NCBI GenBank assembly: GCA_002309855.1
Contig: DBYD01000031.1
Location: 60,723 to 124,722, forward strand
Reading direction: 5' to 3'
DNA: 64,000 nucleotides
DNA from: Bacteroidales bacterium UBA1195
GTDB taxonomy: Bacteria; Bacteroidota; Bacteroidia; Bacteroidales; WCHB1-69
Notes under the pieces: generated by a model
Told to the model about the DNA's origin: nothing
Seen by the model: only the letters and a program-made list of their open reading frames with translations
The model's database searches: none
Made by a program: the position numbers and the translations under genes
In this document: positions 5,677 to 46,491 of the stretch, piece after piece
Numbering within the stretch: the stretch's first letter is position 1
Layout: every line of letters starts with the position of its first letter

Positions 5677-5680
5677 TAAT

Positions 5681-6796: not shown

Positions 6797-6814
6797 TCAA
6801 AGAATATTAAAGTT

Positions 6815-7447: not shown

Positions 7448-9192
7448 GAAGCACATTTATAATATATGATGATGGTTCTAAAGAACAAGCCGAAAAATTT
7501 GGACAACAATTATCAATTGAAAGAATCTCATATCAAGCACATGAAAATGAAATGGGATACCACGATTGGTTAACGAGAGAATTCAAGTCTAAAGATATCC
7601 AGAGAATACTGATACCCTTATCTCTCCCTTCATTGGAAGCAAATACCGAAGGTTTGCTTCTTGGATTGCATATTAGATTAAATTTTGAGCTGCCAATCGA
7701 AAAAAGAAGTATTCCAATTGTGTTCATCACCAATTTAAGTATTGATAATATTCTTACAAAATCGACTTTTGACAGCGATAGTAATCCTCAGAATCTATTG
7801 TTTAGCGAAGGAATCTATATCTCTTCAACCGATATAGATGAAATAAAAGAGAAATTGGAAACATCTAAGTCTGTAAAAGATTATAACTTGTTTTTGCGGC
7901 AACTTAATATTCGAAGAAAAGCAGCTGTTGGTGGACATGATATTGCAAATGCATGGGGATGTTATAAATTGGCTCGTGTAGTGGTTGGTGTTAGTGAAGC
8001 AGAATCTTTTTATTCAAATGAAGCCATTGCAAACCATCTCAAACAATTGTATGCAAAATATTTGATATGTGTTAACGAATCGTTCAAAGATTCAAAGGAG
8101 TCTTATGTTGATTTGGATCCAATTAGTTGTAAGGATAAAAAAGTGCTATTTATTGATGATAAATCTGATGAAGGATGGGGGCTTTTGATGCAAAAGATTT
8201 TCAAGTCCGCTGGAAATGGTTTTGTTTGTGTCGATTCGACAAAATATAAGACTGCCGGAAGTTTTGATTATGATGGCTTTATTTCGGAATGTAAATCTTA
8301 TATTGGTCAATATTGGGATTTGATTATTGTTGACATTCGCCTTAATCCCAATAAGGAAGATATTGATTCTGCCAATATTGCTCCTACGGAGTTTTCAGGA
8401 TATGAGCTTATTGATGCTTTTTTGAACAATAATAAAGGGTATCAGATATTGGTATCCACCGCATCAAATAAAATATGGAATGTAAATGCTGCCCTTAAAC
8501 GCGGTGCAAAAGGGTATTACATAAAGGAATCACCAGAGTTTAACTATCCTATTTCGGAAACAAAAAGACAGTATGAATTATTTAAGAATAGTGTTCAGTC
8601 CTGTTTCTATAATTCATATTTGCAAAATATTTTCAAGTCTGTAGGAGAAGAGATAAAGCCAAGTTTGCCCAATAATGACTTTGGCGAACTGATTTCTAAA
8701 CAATTAGATATAGCATGTTATTTGATTTCTTTAGCGGAAACTCAAGAGCAATATGCTTTTGCATATGTTTCGTTGTACCAAATAATTGAAATAATTACTA
8801 ATGAATTGATTAATAAAGAACAGATACAGTCCAATTCTGCTTTTAATAAATGGAAACTGTTAGATGGAACTTATATACATGAATTCGAATGGGATTCACA
8901 TAATAAGTCGTATAAGGATTTGGGAGACGCTCAATCTGGTAAAGAACCATTTCCTCAATGGAAAAAAATGGCTGGATTAGTATTGCAAGAATGGGCCATG
9001 CCCAATGGAGACGGGTTTGTTCGCAATCTTAGTTTTTTAATCGAAAAGCGTCATGGATTTATTCATAATGACAAGACTATTTTGGATAAACAAGATAAAA
9101 ATACTGGCAAATATCTGAATCATGATATTTTTGATAAATCCGGCTTTGAATCATTGTTTAAAAGTATAAAAGCAATTTGCTCGTACTTATGA
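7444..9192 (+). CDS. Retron-associated protein 3 (582 aa): pseudo-receiver + CheY-like receiver + C-terminal HEPN-like helical domain
   Basis: Residues 232-362 (nt 8137-8529) keep all receiver hallmarks: VLFIDD, LIIVDIRL (acceptor Asp), ILVSTAS and GAKGYYIKE (Lys). The N-terminus FIIYDD...RILIPLS...IPIVFITN is a second, degenerate copy. The C-terminal helical region contains EKRHGFIH, an Rx4H motif at 9049-9066. Confidence 0.6.
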   Translation: MRSTFIIYDDGSKEQAEKFGQQLSIERISYQAHENEMGYHDWLTREFKSKDIQRILIPLSLPSLEANTEGLLLGLHIRLNFELPIEKRSIPIVFITNLSIDNILTKSTFDSDSNPQNLLFSEGIYISSTDIDEIKEKLETSKSVKDYNLFLRQLNIRRKAAVGGHDIANAWGCYKLARVVVGVSEAESFYSNEAIANHLKQLYAKYLICVNESFKDSKESYVDLDPISCKDKKVLFIDDKSDEGWGLLMQKIFKSAGNGFVCVDSTKYKTAGSFDYDGFISECKSYIGQYWDLIIVDIRLNPNKEDIDSANIAPTEFSGYELIDAFLNNNKGYQILVSTASNKIWNVNAALKRGAKGYYIKESPEFNYPISETKRQYELFKNSVQSCFYNSYLQNIFKSVGEEIKPSLPNNDFGELISKQLDIACYLISLAETQEQYAFAYVSLYQIIEIITNELINKEQIQSNSAFNKWKLLDGTYIHEFEWDSHNKSYKDLGDAQSGKEPFPQWKKMAGLVLQEWAMPNGDGFVRNLSFLIEKRHGFIHNDKTILDKQDKNTGKYLNHDIFDKSGFESLFKSIKAICSYL

Positions 9193-9933: not shown

Positions 9934-10470
9934 ATGATGGAAGTATTTAACGCATTAAAACAACTTAAACTATTGAAAAAGAAAACAAACATGGACGGTT
10001 CCAACTCTGTTGGGAAATTGGTGAAGCGGATTGCGAAGAAAATGACGGCGAAGGGGATCAAATGCGAGAATGGGGAGGTGAATCTGAGGTATTCCTTGAA
10101 CAACCGTGCGTTCAAGGCAAGGTTCTGGCCGTCCAAATCATCCGGATACAGGGCTGTCATAATTGAATTAATCTCTTTGGACATCTGGGAGAAGATAACA
10201 GATGAGGGCAGGTCCTTGTGGGTGAACCAGATCAACAGGAACAACCTTGACATGAAAGTCTTTTCCCTGGACGATTCTGTCGTTTGCCAATACACCACGT
10301 TTATAAAGAAGCCCGCGGATTTTGTGGATGAGGCAAAGCGCGGTTATGATGTCTTTGGGGAGACTATGAATTCCTTCTATGACAAGCTTTCCGAAATGGA
10401 ACAGCAGTACGCTGTCCGGGAGCCGATACGTCCCATCGGTTTTTTGAGGAGCATGGAGTCTGTCGCATAA
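9934..10470 (+). CDS. Hypothetical protein (178 aa)
   Basis: ATG ORF directly behind cassette D. No family recognised. Confidence 0.5.
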   Translation: MMEVFNALKQLKLLKKKTNMDGSNSVGKLVKRIAKKMTAKGIKCENGEVNLRYSLNNRAFKARFWPSKSSGYRAVIIELISLDIWEKITDEGRSLWVNQINRNNLDMKVFSLDDSVVCQYTTFIKKPADFVDEAKRGYDVFGETMNSFYDKLSEMEQQYAVREPIRPIGFLRSMESVA

Positions 10471-32837: not shown

Positions 32838-33458
32838 ATGAATGCATTTAAACATTTTGTATGGATTGCCGTTGCGGCAATGGTAATGGTTGGTTGCAGC
32901 AGTTCGAAACATGCTGTGGATTCAAAAATCACCAAACAGACCAGTCTTGAAGGTGAAAAGGTGATGGTTGAGACTGCAAAGATGCAGGGGATTGAAATGG
33001 TTGAAGGTCTGAGTGAGGACGGCACCAAAATCAAAAAGGTGCCCTATAAGTGGTTTGCCGGTATCGGTAAGGCCGATGACAAGCAGACCGCCATTGAGAT
33101 GGCCGAACTGGAGGCCAGAGCCACAATCTCCCGTATTATTGAGAATCTTGTGATGGCCTGTGCCGAGCGTGGCAGCCTGGCCAATAACGGTGAGGTGCAG
33201 AAGGCACTTTCCTCGCATTGGCAGCAGGTTAGCCGGAGCATACAGAATGCCTGCGAACCTTTTGGTGAAACTAAGATTGAGTATAGCCAATCGACCAAAA
33301 TGTACACAGTGACCTCCAAGGTGGGCATCCGTGGCGACAAGTTCCAGCAGATGCTCAACAACGCGGGCAATTTCAAGCCAAGCAGTCTTAGCGGCAAAGA
33401 TTTGGAGGATTTCATTGAGGTGAACAGACAGATTATTGAGGCCGCCAAAGGAAACTGA
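32838..33458 (+). CDS. LPP20-like lipoprotein
   Basis: Lipobox (VMVGCSS). WFAGIGKADDKQTAIEMAELEARATISRIIENLV resembles LPP20-family domains. Paralogous to 34497-35072. Confidence 0.6.
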   Translation: MNAFKHFVWIAVAAMVMVGCSSSKHAVDSKITKQTSLEGEKVMVETAKMQGIEMVEGLSEDGTKIKKVPYKWFAGIGKADDKQTAIEMAELEARATISRIIENLVMACAERGSLANNGEVQKALSSHWQQVSRSIQNACEPFGETKIEYSQSTKMYTVTSKVGIRGDKFQQMLNNAGNFKPSSLSGKDLEDFIEVNRQIIEAAKGN

Positions 33459-33510
33459 AAAAGCGAATAATTGAAAGTAAACATTTTGGACACTTCCATT
33501 GCATAAAATC

Positions 33511-34500
33511 ATGAAACATCTTTTTATTGCCTTGTTTCTGGTTGCAAGTGTTGTTGCCACAGCGCAGAATTATCCGTCTGATTGGGCGAAATATACCTCC
33601 GACAGATATTTTCACGATGTGGAGAGCGCATCCGGCAAGCAGGCCGCACTCGAACTGGCTCGCACCAGCCTGGCCCGTCAGGTGCAGGTGCGCGTCAGCG
33701 AGGTGAGCCAGATGAACAAGGATGTGGTCAACGGTCGTTCGACCATTTTCTATAGTTCGAGCAAGACCTTCTTCACCGATGTGGACATGAACTTGGCCGA
33801 GACAAAAAGCTACTACAACGAAGCTGCCGGAAAGTACTATGTGCTTGTTTATATTGACAAGGTGGCGGCCTGCACCTTTTATGAGAACGAGGTTAGGATG
33901 CTTATCAGCAATACGGACAACACTCTTGGCATTGCAGGCAACTATATTGCGACCGGTTTCAAGCAGAAGGCGAAAGCCGAGTTGGAAAAGATGCTGAAGC
34001 AGTTCGACGGGGCAGGCAAGTCCTTTTTCTGGCTCAACGTGTTCGGCTTTGACGAAGTGCAGCTGCACCGGTATCTTACCAAGTTGCAAGATAATGAACA
34101 GACCGCCAAACAGTGGCTTGCCGACTTGGAATACGGCACCACCTATTGCGTGGTATGCGATGCTGACCTTTTCGGCAAGAAGTATCTCAAACTGGCGAAT
34201 GAGGTTAAAGGCGAGCTCTCGGCTTCGGGCTGCAATTTTGTGGACGACCCCTCATTGGCCGATTATGTCATCCGCATCAGTGCCTCTGCCCGAAAGTACA
34301 ATGAATTTCAGGGTGCCTATTTCACTTATGTGGATGCGACGGTTACTGTTGACAAGAGTGCCACCAGCCAGCGTATTTTTGAGGATGAGGTTTCCGAGAA
34401 AGGTTCCCATACAATCAACTACGATGAGGCCGCCCGCGACGGATACAAAAAGATAAGCAAGGCAATTGTTAAAATGTTAAAAGATAATATCAAGTTATGA
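33511..34500 (+). CDS. Secreted protein with LPP20-like N-terminal segment
   Basis: ATG 33511 gives MKHLFIALFLVASVVATAQ; the track start is a TTG. GKQAALELARTSLARQVQVRVSEV resembles the LPP20 helix. Confidence 0.55.
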   Translation: MKHLFIALFLVASVVATAQNYPSDWAKYTSDRYFHDVESASGKQAALELARTSLARQVQVRVSEVSQMNKDVVNGRSTIFYSSSKTFFTDVDMNLAETKSYYNEAAGKYYVLVYIDKVAACTFYENEVRMLISNTDNTLGIAGNYIATGFKQKAKAELEKMLKQFDGAGKSFFWLNVFGFDEVQLHRYLTKLQDNEQTAKQWLADLEYGTTYCVVCDADLFGKKYLKLANEVKGELSASGCNFVDDPSLADYVIRISASARKYNEFQGAYFTYVDATVTVDKSATSQRIFEDEVSEKGSHTINYDEAARDGYKKISKAIVKMLKDNIKL

Positions 34501-35072
34501 AACAGCATGTGATATTTTTTACGGCACTGATGGTGGTAGCCGTATTTGGAGCCAAAGCTCAGGACAAGAAAACCATTACCAAAAAGAATTTGAAACTTCA
34601 GGGTGTGGAAATGGTGGAAACACTCAACGAGGACGGTACGGACATGATAAAACGGCCATATCGCTGGTTTGCAGGTATGGCTGAGGCTGATGTGCAGTCG
34701 GTGGCCGTGGAGATGGCGCAATTGGAGGCCTACGCCGCCATATCGCGAGTGATTGAAAATTTGGTGACCACCCAGGCCGAACGTGGCACCGTAGCTGTGA
34801 ACGGCAATGTGCAGAAGGCACTCAAATCGCATTGGGAACAGATGAGTATGAGTATCCAGAAGGCCTGTGAACCATTCGGTGAAACTGAGGTGAACTATGA
34901 TAGTGAAACAGGCATTTATGAGGTGGTTGCCAAGGTGGGTATCCGTGGTGACCGCTATGTGAAACTGCTGGACGGTGCAAAAAAAGCGCAGCCGGAAGGT
35001 TTGACCGGTGACGACTTGAAGCAGTTCAACGCCGCCAACGAAGCCATTATTGATGCCGCAAAAGGAAACTGA
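34497..35072 (+). CDS. LPP20-like secreted protein (paralogue of 32838-33458)
   Basis: WFAGMAEADVQSVAVEMAQLEAYAAISRVIENLV and a shared C-terminal ...IIDAAKGN. Start overlaps the upstream stop as ATGA. Confidence 0.6.
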   Translation: MKQHVIFFTALMVVAVFGAKAQDKKTITKKNLKLQGVEMVETLNEDGTDMIKRPYRWFAGMAEADVQSVAVEMAQLEAYAAISRVIENLVTTQAERGTVAVNGNVQKALKSHWEQMSMSIQKACEPFGETEVNYDSETGIYEVVAKVGIRGDRYVKLLDGAKKAQPEGLTGDDLKQFNAANEAIIDAAKGN

Positions 35073-35093
35073 TAACCATATACGCATTTATAT

Positions 35094-36332
35094 ATGAAAC
35101 AGATTCTGATAACAGTTGTGCTGGTAATCTCAACAGTGTTTTCACTTTCCGCCCAACAGAACATAAAGAAAGTGGCAATTCTAGAAACCGTTGACAAGGA
35201 GGGCAGCGTGCCGTATGGAATACGCCTGCAGCTGCGTAGCAGCCTTACCTATGCCATTTCAAACACTCCCGGTTATGAAGGTTACGACCGTGTTGACATG
35301 TCTTCGATTATGGGTGAGCACAACTTCCAGCGTACCGGTATGGTGAGTGATGCGCAGATAAAAAAACTCGGTGAGATGACAGGAGCTAACTCCATTCTTG
35401 TGGCGGAGGCCGCAATGTACGATGCCAACCACATCATCATTACTGCGAAGATACTGAGTGTCGTGACTGCTGGAGTGGAGGCTGCCGCACCACCTAAGGT
35501 TTCAAGTATTGATCCGGAATCCATGGAAAAAGCTTGTATTGAATTGGCGAAGAAACTGCTTGGAAAAACCTCCGGTGATGGTTCTTATGCGGTAATGCCT
35601 GGTGGTGGGAACTCTTCCAACCAGCAGGGAGCTTCCATGATAACCATAAGGGCGGGCAATGTGAGTTTTGAGATGGTGAAGGTGGAGTCCGGAAGTTTTG
35701 TCATGGGCTGCACGGGCGAGCAGGGCGGAGACTGCGATGATGATGAGAAACCTTATCACCGCGTGACCATTTCCCAGGACTACTACATCGGGAAGTTTGA
35801 GGTGACGCAGGAGCTGTATGAGGCGGTGATGGGGGTGAACCCGAGCAACTGGAAGGCCTTCGACCGTCCTGTGGAAATCGTGAGCTGGAACGATGCGATG
35901 GAGTTTTGTGCCGAACTGAGCCGCATGACAGGACGTCGCTTCACCCTGCCCACGGAGGCGGAGTGGGAGTATGCCGCCCGTGGCGGCAGGAAGTCCACCA
36001 GCGCCAAATACAGTGGCAGTTCCAGTGTGACCAATGTGGCGTGGTACAATGGAAACAGTGGCAGCCAGACCCATCCGGTGGGTAAGCTCCGTCCCAACGA
36101 GCTGGGCATCTATGACATGAGCGGCAATGTGTGGGAGTGGTGTCTGGATTGGAAAGGAAGTTACAGTAGTGCGAGCCAGACCGACCCTATGGGACCCGGT
36201 TCGGGCTCCTACCGCGTGCTGCGCGGCGGTAGCTGTTACCAAAGCGCGGGGGGCTGCCGTGTTTCGCTCCGGAGCGACTTCCCCCCTGGTAACGCGCTCC
36301 AAAACATCGGATTCCGTGTTGTCCTCCATTAG
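35094..36332 (+). CDS. Lipoprotein paralogue F1: CsgG/LpoB-like N-domain + FGE-sulfatase (SUMF1, C-type-lectin fold) C-domain
   Basis: Signal peptide, then KKVAILETVD...GYEGYDRVDMSSIMGEHNFQRTGMVSDAQIKKLGEMTGANSILV. The FGE block follows: YYIGKFEVTQELY...VSWNDAMEFC...RFTLPTEAEWEYAARGG...GIYDMSGNVWEWC...RVLRGGS...GFRVVLH. Confidence 0.8.
   Translation: MKQILITVVLVISTVFSLSAQQNIKKVAILETVDKEGSVPYGIRLQLRSSLTYAISNTPGYEGYDRVDMSSIMGEHNFQRTGMVSDAQIKKLGEMTGANSILVAEAAMYDANHIIITAKILSVVTAGVEAAAPPKVSSIDPESMEKACIELAKKLLGKTSGDGSYAVMPGGGNSSNQQGASMITIRAGNVSFEMVKVESGSFVMGCTGEQGGDCDDDEKPYHRVTISQDYYIGKFEVTQELYEAVMGVNPSNWKAFDRPVEIVSWNDAMEFCAELSRMTGRRFTLPTEAEWEYAARGGRKSTSAKYSGSSSVTNVAWYNGNSGSQTHPVGKLRPNELGIYDMSGNVWEWCLDWKGSYSSASQTDPMGPGSGSYRVLRGGSCYQSAGGCRVSLRSDFPPGNALQNIGFRVVLH
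36210..36332 (+). other. VR-like hypervariable 3' block of F1 (most divergent copy)
   Basis: Last 41 codons, see the DGR finding. It keeps the conserved skeleton but has non-NNC deviations (TGT, CAA x2, GCG). Confidence 0.5.
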
Positions 36333-36489
36333 TTTGCTACGAAAAATCCATCAGTCATACTAAGCTAAAAAAACGGTTTATGATAGTGAAGCGGAGCGGG
36401 AGCGGAACGGAGTGCAGCGACAGGCGCAGCGGAAACATCATAAACCGCCGGTGGAAAATAAGAATTACAATCAAGCAAATAATAAAATT
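36333..36489 (+). repeat. Conserved intergenic unit, copy 1
   Basis: Post-stop element TTTGCTACGAAAAATCCATCAGTCATACTAA, then the stem CGGTTTATGAT (36374-36384) / ATCATAAACCG (36437-36447) around a 52-nt purine-rich loop. A 37-codon uORF (36380-36493) ends in a TGA that overlaps the F2 GTG start as GTGA. Confidence 0.8.
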
Positions 36490-37743
36490 GTGAAACGATT
36501 ATTGATTTTTTTATTCATGCTGTCTGTTTCAGTGGCTTCTATAGCTCAGAGCAAGCCTAAGAAGGTTGCCGTATGGGAGACCCAGCGCATTGGCGATGAT
36601 ATCTCGTTGTTCAAGGGTACATTGGTGCGCGGTGCCATTGAGGAGGCTGTAGATAATACTCCAGGTTATGTCAAATATGACAGGGCCATGTTCGATGCAA
36701 TTGTAGCTGAGCACAAATTCCAGCGTTCAGGTGCTGTTAAGGATGATGATATGAGGAAAATGGGTGAAATGGCCGGTGTGCAATATGTTATTGTTCCAGA
36801 ATGTGCTATTGAGGACGGGTATTTTGTGCTTAACGTAAGAATGCTTGATGTGGAGTCCGGACAATCGAAAACAGTGCAGGAGATTCCGGCCAATACTGTA
36901 CCTGAAATAAAGGCGGCCTGCACAAAGTTGTCTGCGCGTCTGTTTGGCAATTCGGGTGGTAGTTCTTATGTGCGTTCTGGCGGAGGTGGCAACACCACCA
37001 CGCAGCGCGGCCAGGATTTCACGGAGACAGCTTTCGGCATCAACATGCGGATGGTATATGTGGAGGGCGGCACCTTCACCATGGGCTGTACTGGCGAGCA
37101 GGGCAGCGATTGTGAAGATGACGAGTCTCCCAACCGGCAGACCACTGTCAGTTCATACTACATCGGTATGTTGGAGGTGACACAGAGCCAGTGGGAGAAG
37201 GTGATGGGAACTTCCATTTATCAGCAGCAGTCCAAAGCAGATGCTTCGAAAACCTATGGCACCGGTGCCGACTACCCGATGTATTATGTGAGTTGGGAGG
37301 AGGCGAAGGAGTTTTGCACCCGCCTAAGTCGTCAGACTGGAAGGAACTATACACTGCCCACCGAGGCGGAGTGGGAGTATGCCGCCCGTGGTGGGAAGAA
37401 AAACGAAGGGACGAAGTACAGTGGGGGCTGGAGTGTAGGTGATGTGGCGTGGTATGATGGAAACAGCGGCAGTTCCACGCATCCGTGTGGAACCAAGCGT
37501 CCAAATGCGCTTGGCATCTACGACATGAGCGGCAACGTATGGGAGTGGTGCGAGGACTGGTATGGCAGCAAATACCTGCAGTATGACAATAACAACCCCA
37601 AAGGTGCCAGTTCAGGCTCCTGCCGCGTGTTGCGCGGCGGTAGCTGGAGCTACGGCGCGAGGAACTGCCGTGTTTCGGATCGGATCAACAGCGCTCCTGG
37701 CAACCGGAACGACGACGACGGGTTTCGCGTTGTCCTCCATTAG
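36490..37743 (+). CDS. Lipoprotein paralogue F2: CsgG/LpoB-like N-domain + FGE-sulfatase C-domain
   Basis: GTG 36490 gives VKRLLIFLFMLSVSVASIAQ. The track start at 36412 lies in the intergenic repeat in another copy's frame. The FGE block is near-identical to F5 and F7. Confidence 0.75.
   Translation: MKRLLIFLFMLSVSVASIAQSKPKKVAVWETQRIGDDISLFKGTLVRGAIEEAVDNTPGYVKYDRAMFDAIVAEHKFQRSGAVKDDDMRKMGEMAGVQYVIVPECAIEDGYFVLNVRMLDVESGQSKTVQEIPANTVPEIKAACTKLSARLFGNSGGSSYVRSGGGGNTTTQRGQDFTETAFGINMRMVYVEGGTFTMGCTGEQGSDCEDDESPNRQTTVSSYYIGMLEVTQSQWEKVMGTSIYQQQSKADASKTYGTGADYPMYYVSWEEAKEFCTRLSRQTGRNYTLPTEAEWEYAARGGKKNEGTKYSGGWSVGDVAWYDGNSGSSTHPCGTKRPNALGIYDMSGNVWEWCEDWYGSKYLQYDNNNPKGASSGSCRVLRGGSWSYGARNCRVSDRINSAPGNRNDDDGFRVVLH
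37621..37743 (+). other. VR-like hypervariable 3' block of F2
   Basis: All 15 hypervariable codons are NNC or NNT (TGC, AGC, AGC, TAC, GGC, AAC, GAT, ATC, AAC, AGC, AAC, AAC, GAC, GAC, GAC). Confidence 0.7.
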
Positions 37744-37901
37744 TTTGCTACGAAAAAATCCATCACTCATACTAAGTTAAAAAACGGTTTATGATAATGA
37801 AGCGGAGCGGGAGCGGAACGGAGTGCAGCGACAGGCGCAGCGGAAACATCATAAACCGTCGGCGGAAAATAAGACTTACAATCAAGCAAAATAATAAAAT
37901 T
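37744..37901 (+). repeat. Conserved intergenic unit, copy 2
   Basis: Same architecture as copy 1, with a 12-bp stem. Here the upstream ATG frame reads in-frame into the next gene. Confidence 0.8.
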
Positions 37902-39170
37902 GTGAAACGATTATTGATTTTTGCGGCTTTGATAGTGTGTTCTCTAATCACTTTGGGGCAGAATGTAAAAAAGGTTGCTATGTTGGAAACTCTTAATGGG
38001 GATAAGAGTGTCGGAGATTTGGCATTTGAGCTGAACATGGTACGAGGTGAATTGATTAAAGCTATTTGCCTCCAATCAGGATATAGAGCATTTATGCGTA
38101 CTGATATTGATCAGCTAATGAAAGAGTATGGTTTTCAAAATTCAGGAATGGTGGCCGATGCTCAAAGAAAAAGAATCGGAGAAATGGCAGGTGCCGATTT
38201 TATTTGTGTTTCAAAACTTACAAAGAAACAATCCTTTTTTTATATTGAGGCATACTTGGTTGATATTGTTACTGGTGAATATTCCGTTCCTGCAACGCAA
38301 TATGTGACATTAAGAGGTAATGATTATGCCGAATTATTTGAAAAGTGTAAAACTCTGGCTCAAGAATTGTTGGGTAATGTTGGCCCTTCTGTTACTACGC
38401 CGCCCCGTACTCCTGTAATAACACCTTCCATACCGTCAACTCCTATAGCAGATGGAAACTACAATGTCAATAGAAACTATAATGGATTCTATATTTGCGG
38501 AAATCAGAGGACTGATTACTCTGATGTTGCGGACGCCTTAAAGGGATTGGCTGATGCAGTCAACAAATGGGGAGAACTTCGTACAGGTGCAATACTTGAA
38601 AACGGGAATGGTATAGTTATATATGGTGGTAATGGCTATAAATACATGGGTTTTTCTGCTGATTTTAGTGCAACTTTTTTGGAAAAGTTAAAAAAATGCC
38701 ACGATGAAAAGGAAATCATTAAAGACATTACTGTTAATTCGAAAGGTCATTATGTCATTATTTATGGGAATGATTACTACCGCACCGATGGATTACCAGA
38801 ATCTTTCTTGAAAAAAATAAAAAAAAGCAGTGATGACGATGAAGATGTTATTTATTCTGTTTCCATAGACAATTCTGACAATTGGGCGTTTGTTTCGAAG
38901 AAGTTTTTCTGTGCTTCAAATAATGATGACTATGAATTTATGCGAGAGGCTAAAAATAAGTTTGGTCATATTGAGTCGGTATGTATTACACTTAAGGGAA
39001 TTGTTGTATGTTGCGAAAAAGGAGTATATTTTAGGGGGATACCAAAGAAAGTTGTTGATAAGTTGATAGAGTTTATGGATAAAGGTAAAATCCCCAAAGT
39101 AATTAAGTATACTGATAGTGGAACATGTTTTATTACTGATGGAGAAAAAACGTATGTTTTTTATATGTAA
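37902..39170 (+). CDS. Lipoprotein paralogue F3': CsgG/LpoB-like N-domain + unrelated AT-rich repeat C-domain (no FGE domain)
   Basis: GTG 37902 gives VKRLLIFAALIVCSLITLGQ. The N-domain is homologous to the other paralogues. The C-half has about 5 internal repeats (GIVIYGGNGYKYMG / HYVIIYGNDYYRTDG / NWAFVSKKFFCAS / GIVVCCEKGVYFRG / TCFITDGEKTYVFYM). Confidence 0.7.
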   Translation: MKRLLIFAALIVCSLITLGQNVKKVAMLETLNGDKSVGDLAFELNMVRGELIKAICLQSGYRAFMRTDIDQLMKEYGFQNSGMVADAQRKRIGEMAGADFICVSKLTKKQSFFYIEAYLVDIVTGEYSVPATQYVTLRGNDYAELFEKCKTLAQELLGNVGPSVTTPPRTPVITPSIPSTPIADGNYNVNRNYNGFYICGNQRTDYSDVADALKGLADAVNKWGELRTGAILENGNGIVIYGGNGYKYMGFSADFSATFLEKLKKCHDEKEIIKDITVNSKGHYVIIYGNDYYRTDGLPESFLKKIKKSSDDDEDVIYSVSIDNSDNWAFVSKKFFCASNNDDYEFMREAKNKFGHIESVCITLKGIVVCCEKGVYFRGIPKKVVDKLIEFMDKGKIPKVIKYTDSGTCFITDGEKTYVFYM

Positions 39171-39174
39171 AAAT

Positions 39175-40407
39175 ATGAAAAAATTACTGATTCTTGCAAC
39201 CTTGCTGACACTCTCCTTATGTGCCATGGCTCAGAGCAAGCCTAAAAAGGTTGCTGTATGGGATGCCAAGTGCATTGGAACAGATGACCTGTTGTTCGAG
39301 GCCGATGTGGTTCAAGGTAGCTTGGAAGAGGCTGTGGACAATATGTCCGGTTATGTCAAATACGACAGGGCAATGTTTGATAAAGTCATGAAGGAACACA
39401 ATTTTGAGCGTTCTGGAGCTGTAAATGACAATCAAATCAAGGAAATGGGTGAATATGCGGGTGTGGATTATATCTTTGTGCCTTCTGTGTCCTCAAAATC
39501 TGGATATATTAACATTGTGGTGCGGTGTATTGACATTAAAACAGGTGAGTCTGTGACAAGGCAGCAACTATCCTCGGCTGAACCACCTGAAATTCAAAAG
39601 GCGTGTGTCAAGATTGCTGAACGGATGCTTGGTGGTAATTCCGGTTCTGACCGCATATACACACAGCCCCGTCCTGGTGGCGGAAACTTTTCCAGCCAGC
39701 AGGGAGCTTCCACGATAACCATAAGGGTTGGCAATGTGAGTTTTGACATGGTGAAGGTGGAGGCGGGCAGCTTTATCATGGGTTGCACGGGCGAGCAGGG
39801 TGGAGAGTGCTATTATGACGAGAGCCCTTATCACCGCGTGACCATTTCCCAGGACTACTACATCGGAAAGTTTGAGGTGACGCAGGAACTGTATGAGGCG
39901 GTGATGGGGGTGAACCCGAGCAACTGGAAGGCATTCGACCGTCCTGTGGAAAGGGTGAGCTGGAACGATGCGATGGAGTTTTGTGCCGAGCTGAGCCGCA
40001 TGACAGGCCGCCGCTTCACCCTGCCGACTGAGGCGGAGTGGGAGTATGCCGCCCGTGGCGGCAGAAAGTCCACCAATGCCAAATACAGCGGCAGTGCCAG
40101 TGTGTCCAATGTGGCGTGGTATGATGGGAACAGCGGCAACCAGACCCATCCGGTGGGTAAGCTCCGTCCCAACGAGCTGGGCATCTACGACATGAGCGGC
40201 AATGTATTTGAATGGTGTCTGGACTGGTACGGAAGCTACAGCAGTGCGAGCCAGACCGACCCTATGGGACCCGGTTCGGGCTCCAGCCGCGTGTTGCGTG
40301 GCGGTGGCTGGGGCTACGGCGCGAGGTACTGCCGTGTTTCGAATCGGAACGGCAGCGCTCCTGGCTACCGGTACGGCTACAACGGGTTTCGCGTTGTCCT
40401 CCATTAG
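39175..40407 (+). CDS. Lipoprotein paralogue F4: CsgG/LpoB-like N-domain + FGE-sulfatase C-domain
   Basis: ATG 39175 lies 4 nt after the F3' stop and gives MKKLLILATLLTLSLCAMAQ. The FGE block is about 90% identical in DNA to F1 (by eye). Confidence 0.8.
   Translation: MKKLLILATLLTLSLCAMAQSKPKKVAVWDAKCIGTDDLLFEADVVQGSLEEAVDNMSGYVKYDRAMFDKVMKEHNFERSGAVNDNQIKEMGEYAGVDYIFVPSVSSKSGYINIVVRCIDIKTGESVTRQQLSSAEPPEIQKACVKIAERMLGGNSGSDRIYTQPRPGGGNFSSQQGASTITIRVGNVSFDMVKVEAGSFIMGCTGEQGGECYYDESPYHRVTISQDYYIGKFEVTQELYEAVMGVNPSNWKAFDRPVERVSWNDAMEFCAELSRMTGRRFTLPTEAEWEYAARGGRKSTNAKYSGSASVSNVAWYDGNSGNQTHPVGKLRPNELGIYDMSGNVFEWCLDWYGSYSSASQTDPMGPGSGSSRVLRGGGWGYGARYCRVSNRNGSAPGYRYGYNGFRVVLH
40285..40407 (+). 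other. VR-like hypervariable 3' block of F4
   Basis: Hypervariable codons are AGC, GGC, GGC, TAC, GGC, TAC, AAT, AAC, GGC, AGC, TAC, TAC, GGC, TAC, AAC. Confidence 0.7.
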
Positions 40408-40571
40408 TTTGCTACGAAAAAATCCATCAGTCATACTAAGCTAAAAAAACGGTTTATGATAGTGAAGCGGAGTGGGAGCGGAATGGAGTGCAGCGACAGG
40501 CGCAGCGGAAACATCATTAACCGCCAGGGAAGAAACATTAAAAAGAAAGATAGTAAAAGGAATATAGTGTC
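40408..40571 (+). repeat. Conserved intergenic unit, copy 3
   Basis: Same element and stem, with one stem mismatch. The 39-codon uORF (40456-40575) ends in a TGA that overlaps the F5 ATG as ATGA. Confidence 0.8.
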
Positions 40572-41828
40572 ATGAAGTTAAAACAAATCGTATTCATCCT
40601 GTTGTATGTGTTCTCACTTACAGCGGTGGGTCAGACGAAGAAAGTAGCTGTGTGGGAGACCAAATGCAGTGACAACAGCCTACGACCAATCCAGAAAACA
40701 ATGGTGCGTGGAGGAATGGAGACCTCTGTGGGGAATACACCGGGTTACGAGGTGTTTGACCGTAGTGCGTTTGATGTCATAATGAAGGAACACCATTTTG
40801 AGCGTTCTGGTGCGGTGAGTGAGGCGGAAATAAAGGAATTGGGTAAAATAGCTGGAGTACAGTACATAATAGTGCCGGAGGCAATGACTGATGGCACAGA
40901 TTTCTATATCATTGTGAAGATGCTTGATGTTGAGACGGGCAAGTTCGGAGGTGTTCATCAGGCATTGTGTACTCCTACAGGGTCGGATATCTATAAAGCA
41001 TGCGAAAAATTAGGTGCTGAACTTTTTGGCAGTTCTTACGGTGGTTCAAATACTAATGGCAATCGTTCCAATGGCAACGCCACCACGCAGCGCGGCCAGA
41101 ACTTCACGGAGACAGCCTTCGGCATCAACATGCGGATGGTATATGTGGAGGGCGGCACCTTCACCATGGGCTGTACTGGCGAGCAGGGCAGCGATTGTGA
41201 CGATGACGAGTCTCCCAACCGGCAGACCACTGTCAGTTCATACTACATCGGTATGTTGGAGGTGACACAGAGCCAGTGGGAGAAGGTGATGGGAACTTCC
41301 GTCTATCAGCAGCGGAACAAAGCCAATCCGGAATGGACGATGCGTGGCATCGGTGCCGACTACCCGATGTACTATGTGAGCTGGGAGGAGGCGAAGGAAT
41401 TTTGCGCCCGCCTGAGCCGTCAGACAGGAAGGAACTACACTCTACCGACCGAGGCGGAATGGGAATATGCCGCCCGTGGCGGGAAGAAAAACGAAGGGAC
41501 GAAGTACAGCGGGGGCTGGAGTGCCGATGATGTGGCGTGGTATGATGGCAACAGCGGCAATTCCACGCATCCGTGCGGCACCAAGCGTCCGAACGCGCTT
41601 GGCATCTACGACATGAGCGGCAATGTGTGGGAGTGGTGCGAGGACTGGTATGGCAAGTATTTGCAGTATGACAACAACAATCCCAAAGGTGCCAATGTCG
41701 GCTCCGGCCGCGTGTCGCGTGGCGGTGGCTGGAACAACTGCGCAGGGTACTGCCGTGTTTCGTATCGGAACGGCAGCACTCCTGGCAGCAGGTACGGCAA
41801 CCTCGGGTTTCGCGTTGTCCTCCATTAG
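40572..41828 (+). CDS. Lipoprotein paralogue F5: CsgG/LpoB-like N-domain + FGE-sulfatase C-domain
   Basis: Signal MKLKQIVFILLYVFSLTAVGQ. The N-terminal ~207 aa differ from F6 at only 7 positions. The FGE block is of the F2/F7 type. Confidence 0.8.
   Translation: MKLKQIVFILLYVFSLTAVGQTKKVAVWETKCSDNSLRPIQKTMVRGGMETSVGNTPGYEVFDRSAFDVIMKEHHFERSGAVSEAEIKELGKIAGVQYIIVPEAMTDGTDFYIIVKMLDVETGKFGGVHQALCTPTGSDIYKACEKLGAELFGSSYGGSNTNGNRSNGNATTQRGQNFTETAFGINMRMVYVEGGTFTMGCTGEQGSDCDDDESPNRQTTVSSYYIGMLEVTQSQWEKVMGTSVYQQRNKANPEWTMRGIGADYPMYYVSWEEAKEFCARLSRQTGRNYTLPTEAEWEYAARGGKKNEGTKYSGGWSADDVAWYDGNSGNSTHPCGTKRPNALGIYDMSGNVWEWCEDWYGKYLQYDNNNPKGANVGSGRVSRGGGWNNCAGYCRVSYRNGSTPGSRYGNLGFRVVLH
41706..41828 (+). 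other. VR-like hypervariable 3' block of F5
   Basis: Hypervariable codons are GGC, GGC, AAC, AAC, TGC, TAC, TAT, AAC, GGC, AGC, AGC, TAC, GGC, AAC, CTC. Confidence 0.7.
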
Positions 41829-41992
41829 TTTGCTACGAAAAAATCCATTAGTCATACTAAGCTAAAAAAACGGTTTATGATAGTGAAGCGGAGCGGGAGC
41901 GGAATGGAGTGCAGCGACAGGCGCAGCGGAATCATCATAAACCGCCGGTGGAAGAAATATTAAAAGAAAGATAGTAAAAGGAATATAGTGTC
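41829..41992 (+). repeat. Conserved intergenic unit, copy 4
   Basis: Same element and 11-bp stem. The uORF (41877-41963, 28 codons) stops 30 nt before the F6 ATG. Confidence 0.8.
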
Positions 41993-43345
41993 ATGAATTT
42001 AAAACAAATCGTATTTATCCTTTTGTCAGTGTTCTCACTGACAGCGGTGGGTCAGACGAAGAAAGTTGCCGTGTGGGAGACCAAATGCAGTGACAACAGC
42101 CTACGACCAATCCAGAAAACAATGGTGCGTGGAGGAATGGAGACCTCTGTGGGGAACACACCGGGTTACGAGGTGTTTGACCGTAGTGCGTTTGATGTCA
42201 TAATGAAGGAACACCATTTTGAGCGTTCTGGTGCGGTGAGTGAGGCAGAAATAAAGGAACTTGGTAAAATAGCTGGAGTCCAGTATATAATAGTGCCGGA
42301 GGCAATGACTGATGGTACAGATTTCTATATCATTGTGAAGATGCTTGATGTAGAGACGGGCAAGTTCGGAGGTGTCCATCAGGCATTGTGTACTCCTACA
42401 GGGTCGGATATCTATAAAGCCTGCGAAAAATTAGGTGCTGAACTTTTTGGCAGTTCTTACGGCGTTTCAAATTCTAATGGCAACCGTTCTAATGGCAACG
42501 CCACCACGCAGCGCGGCCAGGACTTCACGGAGACGGCCTTCGGCATCAACATGAAAATGATATATGTTGAGGGCGGCACCTTCACCATGGGCTGCACCGG
42601 CGAGCAGGGCAGCGATTGCTATGATGGCGAGAAACCTGTCCATATGGTAACGCTTTCCAATTATTATATTGGTGAGACGGAGGTGACTGTAAGACAATTC
42701 ATGAAATTCATAACTGAGACAGGGTATCGCACCGATGCTGAAAAGGATGGTGGTGCATGGAGATGGATAAAGGTTGGTGATGAATGGAAATGGAATTATG
42801 TGAACGGATTGAATTGGATGTATGATGCCAATGGGAATGTCAGGAACAGTTCTGAATATGACCATCCTGTGTTGTATGTAAGTTGGAATGATGCCAATGA
42901 GTTCTGCAAATGGTTGAGACAAAAGACCGGAAAAAGTTATCGCCTGCCCACGGAGGCGGAGTGGGAGTATGCGGCACGTGGAGGTAGAAGAAGCAAAGGC
43001 TATAAATTTAGTGGCAGTAACAGTATAAATGATGTGGCGTGGTATGGGAATTTGAATAGTAGTACAACGGCAAATGGGAAAACGCATTCTGTCGGTACAA
43101 AAACTGCCAACGAACTGGGCATCTACGACATGAGCGGCAACGTGTGGGAATGGTGTCAGGATTGGTACGGAAGTTACAGCAGTGCGAGCCAGACCGACCC
43201 TATGGGACCTGCAGCAGGCTCCTACCGCGTGCTGCGCGGCGGTAGCTGGATCTGCATCGCGGGGGACTGCCGTGTTTCGTACCGGAACCGCACCAACCCT
43301 GGTAACCGGATCGACTGCTACGGATTCCGTGTTGTCCTCCATTAG
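41993..43345 (+). CDS. Lipoprotein paralogue F6: CsgG/LpoB-like N-domain + longer, more canonical FGE-sulfatase C-domain
   Basis: The N-half is almost identical to F5. From ~42615 the FGE domain switches to another subtype (KPVHMVTLSNYYIGETEVTVRQF...HPVLYVSWNDANEFCKWL...YRLPTEAEWEYAARGG). Confidence 0.8.
   Translation: MNLKQIVFILLSVFSLTAVGQTKKVAVWETKCSDNSLRPIQKTMVRGGMETSVGNTPGYEVFDRSAFDVIMKEHHFERSGAVSEAEIKELGKIAGVQYIIVPEAMTDGTDFYIIVKMLDVETGKFGGVHQALCTPTGSDIYKACEKLGAELFGSSYGVSNSNGNRSNGNATTQRGQDFTETAFGINMKMIYVEGGTFTMGCTGEQGSDCYDGEKPVHMVTLSNYYIGETEVTVRQFMKFITETGYRTDAEKDGGAWRWIKVGDEWKWNYVNGLNWMYDANGNVRNSSEYDHPVLYVSWNDANEFCKWLRQKTGKSYRLPTEAEWEYAARGGRRSKGYKFSGSNSINDVAWYGNLNSSTTANGKTHSVGTKTANELGIYDMSGNVWEWCQDWYGSYSSASQTDPMGPAAGSYRVLRGGSWICIAGDCRVSYRNRTNPGNRIDCYGFRVVLH
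43223..43345 (+). other. VR-like hypervariable 3' block of F6
   Basis: Hypervariable codons are TAC, AGC, ATC, TGC, ATC, GAC, TAC, AAC, CGC, ACC, AAC, ATC, GAC, TGC, TAC. Confidence 0.7.
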
Positions 43346-43502
43346 TTTGCTACGAAAAAATCCATCATTCATACTAAGCTAAAAAAAACGGTTTATGATA
43401 GTGAAGCGGAGCGGGAGCGGAACGGAGTGCAGCGACAGGCGCAGCGGAAACATCATAAACCGCCGAGGAAGAATAAGACTTACAATCAAGCAAAATAATA
43501 AA
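43346..43502 (+). repeat. Conserved intergenic unit, copy 5
   Basis: Same element and stem. The upstream ATG frame reads in-frame into F7. Confidence 0.8.
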
Positions 43503-44774
43503 ATGGTGAAACGATTATTGATTTTGGCAGCTTTGCTTGCGGTATCGGTTGTGGTATCTGCCCAGGATAAAGTCAAGAAGGTGGCTGTGCTCAAGGTTGT
43601 CGATGAATATGATGCCGTATCGCCGGGCATAAAACTCAACCTGCGGCAGACCCTGACCGTCGCCATCAACGATATGGAAGGCTATGAGGCCTATACCCGT
43701 GTCAATACGTCGGCTATCAGGGATGAACACGCCTTTGAACGATCCGGCTATGTCAGTGACGATGAGATAAAGGAACTCGGACGGATGAACAGTGTTGATT
43801 ATGTGCTGGTGGCCGAGGTCGCTCCATATAGTGATGGTTACGTCACTTTGACCGCTTCCATATACAATGTGGTTACCGGGCGTATCTTCAAGGCATCGGA
43901 GGGCAAAATAACCTCAACAGATCCCACGAAGATGCCGCAATCGGCCAGGGAGGTTGCCCACACGCTTCTCAAGGGACGCCGACAGGGAGAATTGGTGTCG
44001 GGTGGATACGGATCTGCGGGCAACACCACCACGCAGCGCGGCCAGGATTTCACGGAGACAGCTTTCGGCATCAACATGCGGATGGTATATGTGGAGGGCG
44101 GCACCTTCACCATGGGCTGTACAGGTGAGCAGGGTAGTGATTGCTACGATAACGAGTCCCCAAATAGGCAGACCACTGTCAGTTCATACTACATTGGTAT
44201 GTTGGAGGTGACACAGAGCCAATGGGAGAAAGTGATGGGAACTTCCATTTATCAGCAGCAGTCCAAAGCAAATGCTTCGAAAACCTATGACACCGGTGCC
44301 GACTACCCGATGTATGGTGTGAGTTGGAAGGAGGCGAAGGAGTTTTGCACCCGCCTAAGTCGTCAGACAGGAAGGAACTATACACTGCCCACCGAGGCGG
44401 AGTGGGAGTATGCCGCCCGTGGTGGGAAGAAAAACGAAGGGACGAAGTACAGTGGGGGCTGGAGTGTAGGTGATGTGGCGTGGTATGATGGAAACAGCGG
44501 CAGTTCCACGCATCCGTGTGGAACCAAGCGTCCAAATGCGCTTGGCATCTACGACATGAGCGGCAACGTATGGGAGTGGTGCGAGGACTGGTATGGCAGC
44601 AAATACCTGCAGTATGACAATAACAACCCCAAAGGTGCCAGTTCAGGCGGCTGCCGCGTGTTGCGCGGCGGTTGCTGGAACAACAGCGCAAGGGACTGCC
44701 GTGTTTCGAATCGGAGCTACTTCACTCCTGGCAGCCGGTTCAACGGCTACGGGTTTCGCGTTGTCCTCCATTAG
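43503..44774 (+). CDS. Lipoprotein paralogue F7: CsgG/LpoB-like N-domain + FGE-sulfatase C-domain
   Basis: ATG 43503 gives MVKRLLILAALLAVSVVVSAQ. The FGE block is of the F2/F5 type. Confidence 0.8.
   Translation: MVKRLLILAALLAVSVVVSAQDKVKKVAVLKVVDEYDAVSPGIKLNLRQTLTVAINDMEGYEAYTRVNTSAIRDEHAFERSGYVSDDEIKELGRMNSVDYVLVAEVAPYSDGYVTLTASIYNVVTGRIFKASEGKITSTDPTKMPQSAREVAHTLLKGRRQGELVSGGYGSAGNTTTQRGQDFTETAFGINMRMVYVEGGTFTMGCTGEQGSDCYDNESPNRQTTVSSYYIGMLEVTQSQWEKVMGTSIYQQQSKANASKTYDTGADYPMYGVSWKEAKEFCTRLSRQTGRNYTLPTEAEWEYAARGGKKNEGTKYSGGWSVGDVAWYDGNSGSSTHPCGTKRPNALGIYDMSGNVWEWCEDWYGSKYLQYDNNNPKGASSGGCRVLRGGCWNNSARDCRVSNRSYFTPGSRFNGYGFRVVLH
44652..44774 (+). other. VR-like hypervariable 3' block of F7
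   Basis: Hypervariable codons are TGC, TGC, AAC, AAC, AGC, GAC, AAT, AGC, TAC, TTC, AGC, TTC, AAC, GGC, TAC. Confidence 0.7.
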
Positions 44775-44775
44775 T

Positions 44776-44808
44776 TTAGTATGACAGATGGATTTCAGTC
44801 GTAGTAAA
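44776..44808 (-). repeat. Inverted copy of the ~32-nt post-stop element
   Basis: TTAGTATGACAGATGGATTTCAGTCGTAGTAAA aligns with the reverse complement of the element found after F1, F2, F4, F5 and F6 (TTAGTATGACTGATGGATTTTTTCGTAGCAAA). About 29 of 33 positions match with one small indel. A direct-orientation alignment gives only about a third identity. Confidence 0.7.
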
Positions 44809-44997
44809 CAGGTTCGTGTCGGGTTTGGCATTGCCAAACGAAAAGGAGCGGTCGGGAACCGTCTGTATGCCGGTGCTGGTAGCCGTTGCAGGGTCGTTAC
44901 AGAACCGGATTACTGCATCGGCGAAGGCTCCGGTGATGAGATATGTTCCAATCCCACCCCCGCTTCATCCGGCAGGTTTTGATTAAAATAATTCAAT

Positions 44998-46491
44998 ATG
45001 AAACAATTCTTTACATTCATCCTTGCATTTTTGTTCGCCTCCAATGCCTTTGCTCAGGTGAACCGCGACGCGTTTGACCAACAGCGGCAGAAGATGCGCG
45101 AGCAGTATGAGCAGAAGAAAAATCAGATGCAGCGGCAGTATGACGATGCGCGTAAAAAGGCGGAAGCGGAATACGCAGCCTTCCGCAAGAAGGCCAACGA
45201 GGAGTATGCCGAGGCGGTGAAAAAAGCCTGGCAGCAGATGGGTGTCCAGCCTGCCGTGCCGAAACCAAAAGAGCCGGAGCCACCTCGTCCGCCTGCACCT
45301 GTTCCCGACAAGGAACCTACTACCGACCCGCTGCCGCAGGGTGAAGTGGAGCCATTGCCGGAGGTCAAACCTCCAGTGCCTGCGCCGCCTATTCCCGAAC
45401 CGGAGCCTGAGGTGCCAGTAATGCGGTTCAGCCTGTATGGCACCGGCTGCAGCGTTCATGCCGATGCCGGGCAGCTACGTTTCAAGCTGGCATCGGTTGA
45501 TGAAAATGGGGCGGCGGCGGCCTGGCAAACATTGTCGCAGGAGAAATACGACGGGCTGTTGCACGATTGTCTGGCACTGCGTGACCGGCTGCATCTTGGG
45601 GATTGGGGCTATCTATGCCTGCTGCAGTCTGCAACGGAGCAATTGCTTGGCAGTGGCAGCAACGAGGCTGTGCTGCTGCAGATGTACCTGCTGACCCAGT
45701 CCGGTTACCGTGTGCGCCTTGCCAAGGCGGACGGACGTTTTGTCCTGTTGGTGCCTTTCAGCCATACGGTCTATAATTATTCTTATGTGCCCATAGATGG
45801 ATTGAAGCATTATCTGCTCCGTCCCGGTAAGGGCGGCAGCGTGCAGGTCTGCAAAGTGGCTTTTCCACGTGAGCAGGTGGCAAACATCCTGTTGGCGGAA
45901 CTGCCCGCCTTGGAGCATAATATGCAACCTGGGCGCACCTTTTCGGCCAAACGTTTTGGCACGATGCGGGCGGAGGTCTCGGTGGACAAAAGCCTTGTGG
46001 ATTTCATGAACGATTATCCGTTGAGCGGAGCCTGGGAATGCTACGCCCGTACCGGTTTGAGCGAAAACGTAAAGTCAACCCTCTATCCGGCGTTGCGCAG
46101 TCAGATTGAAGGCAAAAGCAAAAAAAAGGCCGCACTCATGCTTCTGGATTTTGTACAGTCAGCCTTTGCCTATGCCACTGATCAGGAGCAGTTCGGCTAC
46201 GAGAGGCCCCTGTTCGGGGATGAGAGCTTCCATTATCCCAAGAACGACTGTGAGGACCGTTCCATCCTCTACAGCATTCTGGTGCGCGACCTTTTGGGGC
46301 TGGATGCGGTGCTTGTGAACTGGCCAGGACATCTGGCCACGGCGGTGGCCTTTCCGGAAGAGGTGGAGGGCGACTATTTCACCATAGACGGCCGCCGTTA
46401 TACGGTGTGCGACCCAACCTATATCGGTGCCTCAATTGGGGAGACTATGCCGCAGTTCAAGAAGGTGGAGGCCAAACTGATAAAGTTATGA
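44998..46491 (+). CDS. Secreted protein: coiled coil + Pro-rich linker + transglutaminase-like (papain-fold) C-domain
   Basis: Signal MKQFFTFILAFLFASNAFAQ, a K/E/Q-rich helix and a PxP-rich stretch. A candidate Cys-His-Asp triad is present (NDCEDRSILY...WPGHLATAV...VCDPT). Confidence 0.6.
   Translation: MKQFFTFILAFLFASNAFAQVNRDAFDQQRQKMREQYEQKKNQMQRQYDDARKKAEAEYAAFRKKANEEYAEAVKKAWQQMGVQPAVPKPKEPEPPRPPAPVPDKEPTTDPLPQGEVEPLPEVKPPVPAPPIPEPEPEVPVMRFSLYGTGCSVHADAGQLRFKLASVDENGAAAAWQTLSQEKYDGLLHDCLALRDRLHLGDWGYLCLLQSATEQLLGSGSNEAVLLQMYLLTQSGYRVRLAKADGRFVLLVPFSHTVYNYSYVPIDGLKHYLLRPGKGGSVQVCKVAFPREQVANILLAELPALEHNMQPGRTFSAKRFGTMRAEVSVDKSLVDFMNDYPLSGAWECYARTGLSENVKSTLYPALRSQIEGKSKKKAALMLLDFVQSAFAYATDQEQFGYERPLFGDESFHYPKNDCEDRSILYSILVRDLLGLDAVLVNWPGHLATAVAFPEEVEGDYFTIDGRRYTVCDPTYIGASIGETMPQFKKVEAKLIKL

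Follow-up and report, generated by a model that had tools for sequence, protein, structure and literature searches.

The 64,000-nucleotide stretch of DNA from Bacteroidales bacterium UBA1195 analyzed here (contig DBYD01000031.1, positions 60,723 to 124,722; hereafter, the window) includes, between 32.8 and 46.5 kb, a single plus-strand operon in which three small genes are followed by seven tandem paralogs, denoted F1 to F7, and then by a gene for a protein of about 500 amino acids (aa). All seven paralogs have in common a signal peptide together with a module of about 170 aa at the N-terminus that faintly resembles LpoB/CsgG, and six of these (F1, F2 and F4 to F7) also contain an FGE-sulfatase domain (FGE, formylglycine-generating enzyme; PF03781 in Pfam, E-values from 1e-47 to 1e-63) that extends to the last residues of the protein. 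The array of six FGE genes is broken by F3 (37791-39170), a paralog without this domain. Each of the FGE genes ends in a 123-nucleotide (nt) block that, as we argue below, is probably a variable region (VR) written by a diversity-generating retroelement (DGR). The paralogs and their terminal blocks, the latter assigned to two scaffold types, are the following (ORF, open reading frame).

35094-36332, plus strand: F1, LpoB/CsgG-like N-terminal module and FGE-sulfatase domain (PF03781, 4e-49); signal peptide ending in ...SLSA/QQ (the slash marks the cleavage site)
36210-36332, plus strand: putative VR of F1, type-B scaffold, partly decayed (TGT, CAA twice, GCG)
36412-37743, plus strand: F2, longest ORF, the likely true start being the GTG at 36490; putative VR at 37621-37743, type-A scaffold
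37791-39170, plus strand: F3, which has only the N-terminal module in common with its paralogs; no Pfam family, a weak LpoB match, no VR
39118-40407, plus strand: F4, longest ORF, with a likely start near 39175; putative VR at 40285-40407, type A; gene body groups with F1
40572-41828, plus strand: F5; putative VR at 41706-41828, type-A scaffold; the same sequence is present in rumen metagenome contigs L090 and L091
41993-43345, plus strand: F6; putative VR at 43223-43345, type-B scaffold, with clean NNC codons
43395-44774, plus strand: F7, longest ORF, with a likely start at the ATG at 43503; putative VR at 44652-44774, type-A scaffold

The blocks comprise the last 41 codons of F1, F2 and F4 to F7 and align without gaps; an earlier note on this DNA had delineated them from the sequence alone, and their coordinates and alignment were reproduced here, as were, exactly, its 15 hypervariable columns and the example codons given for them. 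In F2, F4, F5, F6 and F7, these columns consist of 71 NNC codons and 4 NAT codons among 75, with no codon of any other kind, an excess of NNC that has P = 4.7e-35 against the background of 27% third-position C elsewhere in these genes, where the AAC:AAT ratio is 64:49. Codon positions 1 and 2 in the hypervariable columns take all four bases, and all the encoded residues are reachable from AAC, with none that is not. Across the last 41 codons, at least three bases are found at position 1 in 14 columns and at position 3 in none, and in each of the upstream 41-codon blocks, variation is mainly at third positions, as in ordinary drift, so that the contention of the earlier note that the pattern is localized rather than spread over the whole genes holds. 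Columns 14, 25 and 29 also vary at position 1, and column 13 at position 3 (G/A), all of which fits isolated adenines in a template. The variable sites end directly before an invariant 24-nt stretch, GGGTTTCGCGTTGTCCTCCATTAG. F1 departs from the pattern at the codons listed above and has in common with F6 the 3' scaffold GGA TTC CGT, both as previously described. Variation at positions 1 and 2 of AAY-type codons, the mark of a DGR VR, is thus present here, as judged indirectly, from homologous template repeats (TRs) rather than the cognate one, and the blocks lie where a VR is expected in a DGR target, at the 3' end of an ORF with a C-type-lectin/FGE fold.

The reverse transcriptase (RT) of a DGR misreads only the adenines of the TR RNA, and the resulting cDNA replaces the 3' end of the target gene. 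Evidence of such overwriting comes from the comparison of F2 with F7, which are 99% identical over the 300 nt before the VR and 85% identical within it: there are 3 differences in the 300 nt directly upstream of the block and 18 in the 123 nt inside (Fisher P = 5e-8), and 17 of these 18 fall at codon positions 1 and 2. The gene bodies cluster as F1 with F4, and F2 with F5 and F7, whereas the blocks cluster as type A (F2, F4, F5 and F7) and type B (F1 and F6), the two types differing at 7 or more synonymous scaffold sites. What a block contains thus does not depend on the ancestry of the gene that carries it, as retrohoming from a template predicts. The earlier note, pointing to F1 and F6, had suggested decay or a second template, and the existence of two scaffold types leads us to infer that at least two template versions were used, one for type A and another for type B. 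Among the type-A VRs, 29 sites vary, 27 of them at codon positions 1 and 2; adenine occurs at 26 of the 29, where it outnumbers every other base (42%). We considered the possibility that one of the six blocks is itself the template and rejected it because none is A-rich.

The type-A blocks yield a putative A-rich template, AGCCGCGTGTTGCGYGGCGGTAGCTGGAACAACARCGCRAGGAACTGCCGTGTTTCGAATCGGAACAACAACACTCCTGGCAACAGGAACAACAACAACGGGTTTCGC, which made it possible to look for its kin. With 80% identity over 69 nt, it matches the stretch directly 3' of the RT gene in the annotated DGR of Prosthecochloris pPAES01, a cassette in which the order is FGE target, HRDC, Avd, RT, TR, FGE target. A 21-nt piece of the template was found in one JGI metagenome contig, L089, which carries a complete DGR with an RT containing the IGNLTSQ and YMDD motifs and with TR/VR mismatches on TR adenines; in this contig and in other cassettes, the TR/VR pairs are canonical, 123-134 nt long and mismatched at TR adenines. 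When the template was translated and compared with the protein database, 133 short "proteins" were recovered at E <= 0.001 (for example, GSNRVLRGGSWNNNARNCRVSNRNNNTPGSRNNNNGFRVV); these are pseudo-ORFs of 36-74 aa, and those that could be placed directly follow RVT_1 genes in cassettes composed of an FGE target, HRDC, RT and TR. One such cassette, L094, carries an in-cis target that aligns full-length with F2 at 42% identity (E = 2e-103) and has the same architecture, from the signal peptide to the VR, and the best match to F2 among solved structures is TvpA of Treponema denticola (PDB 2y3c, E = 6e-35), which serves as structural prototype for DGR variable proteins of the FGE type, in an alignment that runs through the VR to the C-terminus. 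In four real TRs, 24-27 of the 33-35 sites that are variable in the type-A blocks of the window are adenines. The TR that the earlier note predicted by eye is almost exactly like the real TRs of its class, and its placement of the blocks, as DGR VRs, on a TvpA-like FGE/C-type-lectin scaffold is supported; Avd, which it expected as the accessory, gives way to HRDC in the related Bacteroidales cassettes. Judged by these sequence comparisons, the F proteins are members of a genuine DGR target family, with the class of the template identified.

The same searches revealed that DGR TRs are widely called as genes of 36-74 aa (for example, 10001-10135 in L094 and 1903-2097 in L098), which are labeled in public records as "SUMF1/EgtB/PvdO family nonheme iron enzyme" or "formylglycine-generating enzyme". 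A translated, Asn-rich template used as a protein-database query is an effective way of finding such mis-annotated TRs.

All these observations suggest that the six 123-nt blocks are VRs written by a DGR, an interpretation to which we assign a probability of roughly 0.88. The targets would be secreted two-domain proteins that combine a signal-peptidase-I peptide and an LpoB/CsgG-like module with an FGE-type C-type-lectin head, and the varied residues would be located at the C-terminal tip of the lectin fold, by analogy with TvpA. AAC codons of the template would become NNC codons of the genes, with the non-adenine bases copied faithfully; the donor would belong to the Bacteroidales cassette class with the order FGE target, HRDC, RT, TR; and writing would have continued after the duplication that produced F2 and F7. 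Under this interpretation, the six genes form the target array of an HRDC-type Bacteroidales DGR, with the core remote or lost.

Several results weigh against this interpretation, and these start with the core itself. No TR, seventh copy of the block or A-rich partner repeat with adenine-biased mismatches was detected in the 64-kb window by a screen that does detect the L089 control, and no DGR-type RT, Avd (PF05635) or HRDC (PF00570) was found among the window ORFs scanned, which included all sizeable ORFs and intergenic small ORFs. Searches of GTDB species-representative genomes, IMG/VR and JGI metagenomes with scaffold and TR-specific patterns recovered no cognate TR, and the inferred TR matched no phage record. 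The four related TRs are only about 70-75% identical to the scaffold sites of the window, and therefore, none of them is the donor. The canonical GC-rich GRNA hairpin is absent downstream of the VRs. Furthermore, there are hints of low or no present activity: the codons of F1 are decayed, three differences among the type-A VRs do not involve adenine, the assembly passes cleanly through all six VRs, and a close relative, P0022, is encoded identically on 13 contigs from several samples, its VR codons being partly decayed.

Other searches around the core gave the following results. Matches to the inferred TR on plasmids are TRs of other phyla. A DGR RT probe found no match on the 125,829-bp NCBI contig on which F2 is recorded among the 120 matches listed of 3,807, and relatives of the operon at 60-72% identity have no RT or TR within 10 kb of it. 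The statement of the earlier note that the 64 kb contain no matching TR, Avd or DGR-type RT accordingly stands, with the qualification that one RT, of the retron type, is present at 4576-5676. This places the core beyond 35 kb on the upstream side of the array, beyond 19 kb on the downstream side or on another contig, unless it is gone. We consider the chances that a matching core is still in the genome to be about even; the genes are either non-adjacent (trans) targets or recently orphaned ones, and the evidence does not separate these two possibilities.

With regard to recent activity, the sharp divergence of F2 and F7 in the VR, with hardly any outside it, and the lack of third-position decay in the 75 hypervariable codons speak in its favor. 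Among the relatives, VRs range from clean ones with private scaffolds (L083b and L083c) to decayed ones (L085, L082a and L082c). We discarded one apparent sign of a static VR, the identical F5 VR in ENA contigs, because the same rumen study is the source of these contigs, among which L090 is an F5/F6 chimera. A separate observation concerns P0076, a dockerin plus FGE-sulfatase cluster with 105 members at 90% identity or more on one contig, compared with 1-6 members in the clusters of the window family; a profile of this kind would be expected of an actively diversifying DGR target.

The sequences that follow the blocks bear on how such an array could have lost its core. In canonical DGR targets, a hairpin or cruciform with a GC-rich stem and a GRNA loop is located about 4-34 bp past the VR (PMC3240598). 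The window shows only a weak AT-rich stem (-1 to -4.8 kcal/mol; -13.5 for F7). The blocks are followed by a conserved flank, which in five genes opens an intergenic unit of about 125-150 nt. The coordinates of these elements are as follows.

36333-36365, plus strand: target-type 3' flank after F1, TTTGCTACGAAAAAATCCATCAGTCATACTAA
37744-37777 (F2), 40408-40441 (F4), 41829-41862 (F5) and 43346-43379 (F6), plus strand: copies of the target-type 3' flank
44775-44808, plus strand: 3' flank of F7, TTTAGTATGACAGATGGATTTCAGTCGTAGTAAA, the reverse complement of the other five, resembling the flank that follows the TRs in L094 and L098
36333-36480, 37744-37900, 40408-40540, 41829-41960 and 43346-43490, plus strand: intergenic unit

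The five copies of the intergenic unit are 91-96% identical and far less diverged than the flanking coding regions. Each includes an 11-bp perfect inverted repeat (CGGTTTATGAT...ATCATAAACCG) around a GCGG-rich stretch, and the open frame of the unit spuriously lengthens the longest ORFs of F2, F3 and F7 at the N-terminus. A leader, a promoter and an attenuator are candidate roles for this unit; its consensus fold shows no covariation, the copies being nearly identical.

In four independent cassettes of the Bacteroidales type (L094/L096, L098, L089 and L004), a reverse-complement relationship links the 20-28 nt that follow the VR to the 20-28 nt that follow the TR (for instance, 8430-8455 on the VR side and 10136-10160 on the TR side in L094, and 264-295 and 2019-2055, respectively, in L098). 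The score of this complementarity was reached by 0, 0, 9 and 0 of 500 shuffles, in the same order of cassettes, and direct comparison of the flanks gave no significant similarity. Three cassettes from other phyla lack the complementarity and have canonical GC-rich hairpins instead. In Guo et al. 2011, we found no description of such flank complementarity. Two relatives of the operon, L085 and L082c, carry the same flank as F1, F2, F4, F5 and F6, whereas the F7 flank could be either an old inversion of an imperfect hairpin or a scar of recombination between a VR and a TR that removed an in-cis core. One might go further and propose an HRDC-type Bacteroidales subclass of DGRs in which VR-flank/TR-flank complementarity of 20-30 nt replaces the GC-rich hairpin as the determinant of the target site, with F7 being the scar of a core-deleting VR x TR recombination; we regard this combined proposal as speculative and rather unlikely. 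Under it, base pairing would be conceivable between the spacer of the DGR RNA and the sense strand of the target beside the initiation of mutagenic homing (IMH) site. If functional, the flank relationship bears on how DGRs choose their targets.

The most probable of the rival explanations is an orphaned array, in which the HRDC, RT and TR once followed F7, recombination between the F7 VR and the TR deleted them, and the six VRs are frozen relics. This scenario is a sub-case of the DGR interpretation rather than a denial of it, and although we do not consider it the likelier course of events, it deserves serious consideration. The F7 flank is the reverse complement of the other five (score 20, reached in 0 of 500 shuffles) and resembles the TR-side flanks of L094 (0 of 500) and L098 (P = 0.018) rather than their VR-side flanks; in the four independent cassettes of this class, VR and TR flanks are reverse complements of each other. 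The last array genes of the relatives carry the F2-type flank, so that the F7 state is derived, and with about 85% complementarity to the other five, the F7 element looks like one half of a typical TR/VR flank pair rather than a fresh inversion. In the L094 and L098 cassettes, moreover, HRDC and RT are bracketed by the VR and the TR as direct repeats, and the absence of a core from the window, the non-adenine differences among the type-A VRs, and the static, decaying VRs of the relatives all agree with orphaning. However, the F7 VR is not A-rich, and its diversification extends through column 33, which would confine the crossover to the last 27 nt or so; the same picture would result if an imperfect hairpin had been inverted locally long ago; and the similarity to the TR flanks is unconvincing beyond about 25 nt. 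Orphaning does not account for the type-B VRs, and five VRs are pristine at all third positions.

Two explanations that lie outside the DGR interpretation fare much worse. Gene conversion of the 3' ends and spacers, joined by diversifying selection on binding-site residues and by codon preference, would dispense with a retroelement altogether. The homogenized stretch indeed runs about 125-150 nt past the stop codon (91-96% identity), beyond the reach of DGR writing, and therefore, some concerted evolution does occur; the paralogs are mosaic as well, as in the N-terminal halves of F5 and F6. Selection, nevertheless, cannot fix C at the third position in 71 of 75 codons (T in the other 4) while positions 1 and 2 use all bases, least of all in genes where third-position C otherwise stands at 27% and AAC:AAT at 64:49, nor does it account for the coincidence of the variable sites with the adenines of real homologous TRs or for a repertoire without a single residue unreachable from AAC; we give this explanation hardly any credence. 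Only slightly more plausible, and still very improbable, is an artefact of assembly, whereby a chimeric or collapsed repeat family in a metagenome-derived genome produced the six-gene layout or the absence of the core. In its favor, L090, a short-read contig of that rumen study, is demonstrably chimeric between F5 and F6; F2 and F7 have identical stretches of about 300 nt in common; and the source contig is unannotated and has near-identical matches from one rumen project only. Against an artefact stand the uniqueness of each VR and its junction with a distinct gene body, the match of L001 and L091 to the window at 99.6-100%, and the occurrence of the same operon, with one to three FGE genes, in relatives from other studies; and misassembly, while it may reorder genes, cannot create the codon signature.

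If the blocks are, as we favor, DGR VRs, their layout is not a new kind of DGR organization. The earlier note considered it unusual; yet remote targets and multiple tandem targets have both been published already (PMC5758913, PMC7517822). Wu et al. 2018 reported non-adjacent targets in 45 of 372 DGRs; 10 DGRs have, in all, 29 targets at distances above 100 kb, Treponema has seven that are non-adjacent, and tandem targets number as many as eight (PMC5758913). A survey of cyanobacteria found 76 remote targets (PMC7517822). The closest parallel is the TvpA system of Treponema denticola (PMC4891356; PMC5758913), with which the window has in common the FGE-type C-type-lectin fold and the VR at the extreme C-terminus, and in which one DGR serves several non-adjacent targets; unlike the proteins of that system, those of the window lack a lipobox, contain an LpoB/CsgG-like module, and are encoded in tandem in one operon rather than scattered, and the core of the array has not been located. 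The Bacteroidales cassettes L094/L095/L096, L098 and L089 resemble the locus in target architecture, TR class and the kind of 3' flank element, but have one cis target beside HRDC, RT and TR, compared with six targets and no core in the window. In the known multi-target and remote-target DGRs (PMC5758913, PMC7517822), several VRs likewise depend on one template, and targets are tens of kilobases to megabases away from the RT; there, however, both TR and RT have been identified, and the specificity for adenines was put to a direct test, whereas the link of the window array to a core is inferred.

The locus is a clear instance, from an uncultured rumen Bacteroidales, of several genes that together form a DGR target array, within a conserved operon in which a module for anchoring or secretion is common to the members while the C-terminal heads are exchanged; if F7 does bear the scar of a core-deleting recombination, the locus would be a snapshot of DGR arrays in the process of becoming orphaned. 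VR-only signatures are recognizable, and their template can be predicted without an RT, so that surveys centered on RTs miss such loci; here, a template inferred from VRs alone served to retrieve real TRs.

The remaining genes of the operon flank the array on both sides.

32838-35072, plus strand: three upstream genes, encoding a 206-aa lipoprotein, a 333-aa LPP20-like protein and a 191-aa weakly LPP20-like protein
44998-46491, plus strand: operon-closing gene for a protein of about 500 aa, with a signal peptide and no recognized family

The upstream trio is conserved, preceding the arrays in relatives L082, L083 and L085-L088, and counterparts of the closing gene, of 467-506 aa, are found in L082, L083 and L085. 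The first gene (32838-33458) is the only one in the operon with a lipobox (MVGC/S). The N-termini of the F proteins are of the signal-peptidase-I type, ending in ...SLSA/QQ, SIA/QS, AVG/QT or VSA/QD, with no lipobox cysteine such as marks a TvpA-like surface lipoprotein; the "lipoprotein" label given to them in the earlier note accordingly has to be dropped, and by sequence, the F proteins are not lipoproteins.

In the relatives at 60-72% identity, the operon is the same, with one to three FGE genes. Throughout this conserved Bacteroidales operon (32838-46491 in the window; L082, L083 and L085-L088), the number of tandem genes varies while the LpoB/CsgG-like N-terminal module is constant, and the C-terminal heads differ, being FGE-sulfatase, OmpH, pentapeptide repeats, TonB_C or, as in F3, unassigned, such that the operon looks like a modular secreted-protein or display system. 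The F paralogs are recombination mosaics: the N-terminal halves of F5 and F6 (40572-41130 and 41993-42550) are nearly identical, whereas their FGE domains are different, and other segments are common to F1 and F4 and to F2, F5 and F7. In a profile scan of the genome contigs with the F-family alignment, the matches listed include FGE-domain relatives at no more than 50% identity only. The neighboring genes are chromosomal genes of Bacteroidota, encoding IleRS, UvrA, RecX, a protein sorted by the type IX secretion system (T9SS) and a TonB-dependent receptor. Contigs 99-100% identical to parts of the window come from the bovine rumen project PRJNA60251 only, and therefore, the organism is an uncultured rumen Bacteroidales.

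The single RT of the window could be excluded as a DGR RT by its retron-type motifs NAxxH, QGAPTSP, YADD and VTG; it matches a PADLOC retron RT with E = 6e-111 and scores above the NCBIfam cutoff for retron_St85. It belongs to a defense-type island on the plus strand (2924-9192), unrelated to the VR array, which also contains a 210-aa ORF.

2924-3985, plus strand: WYL/WCX regulator
4576-5676, plus strand: retron-type RT (PADLOC retron RT types XI/XII/I-C, E <= 1e-93)
5639-6796, plus strand: HisKin-conflict protein
7444-9192, plus strand: iREC/receiver-like protein

The 590-nt gap at 3986-4575, the expected site of the msr/msd RNA, has no Rfam match, nor does any other part of the window. The island may be a retron with an unusual set of effectors.

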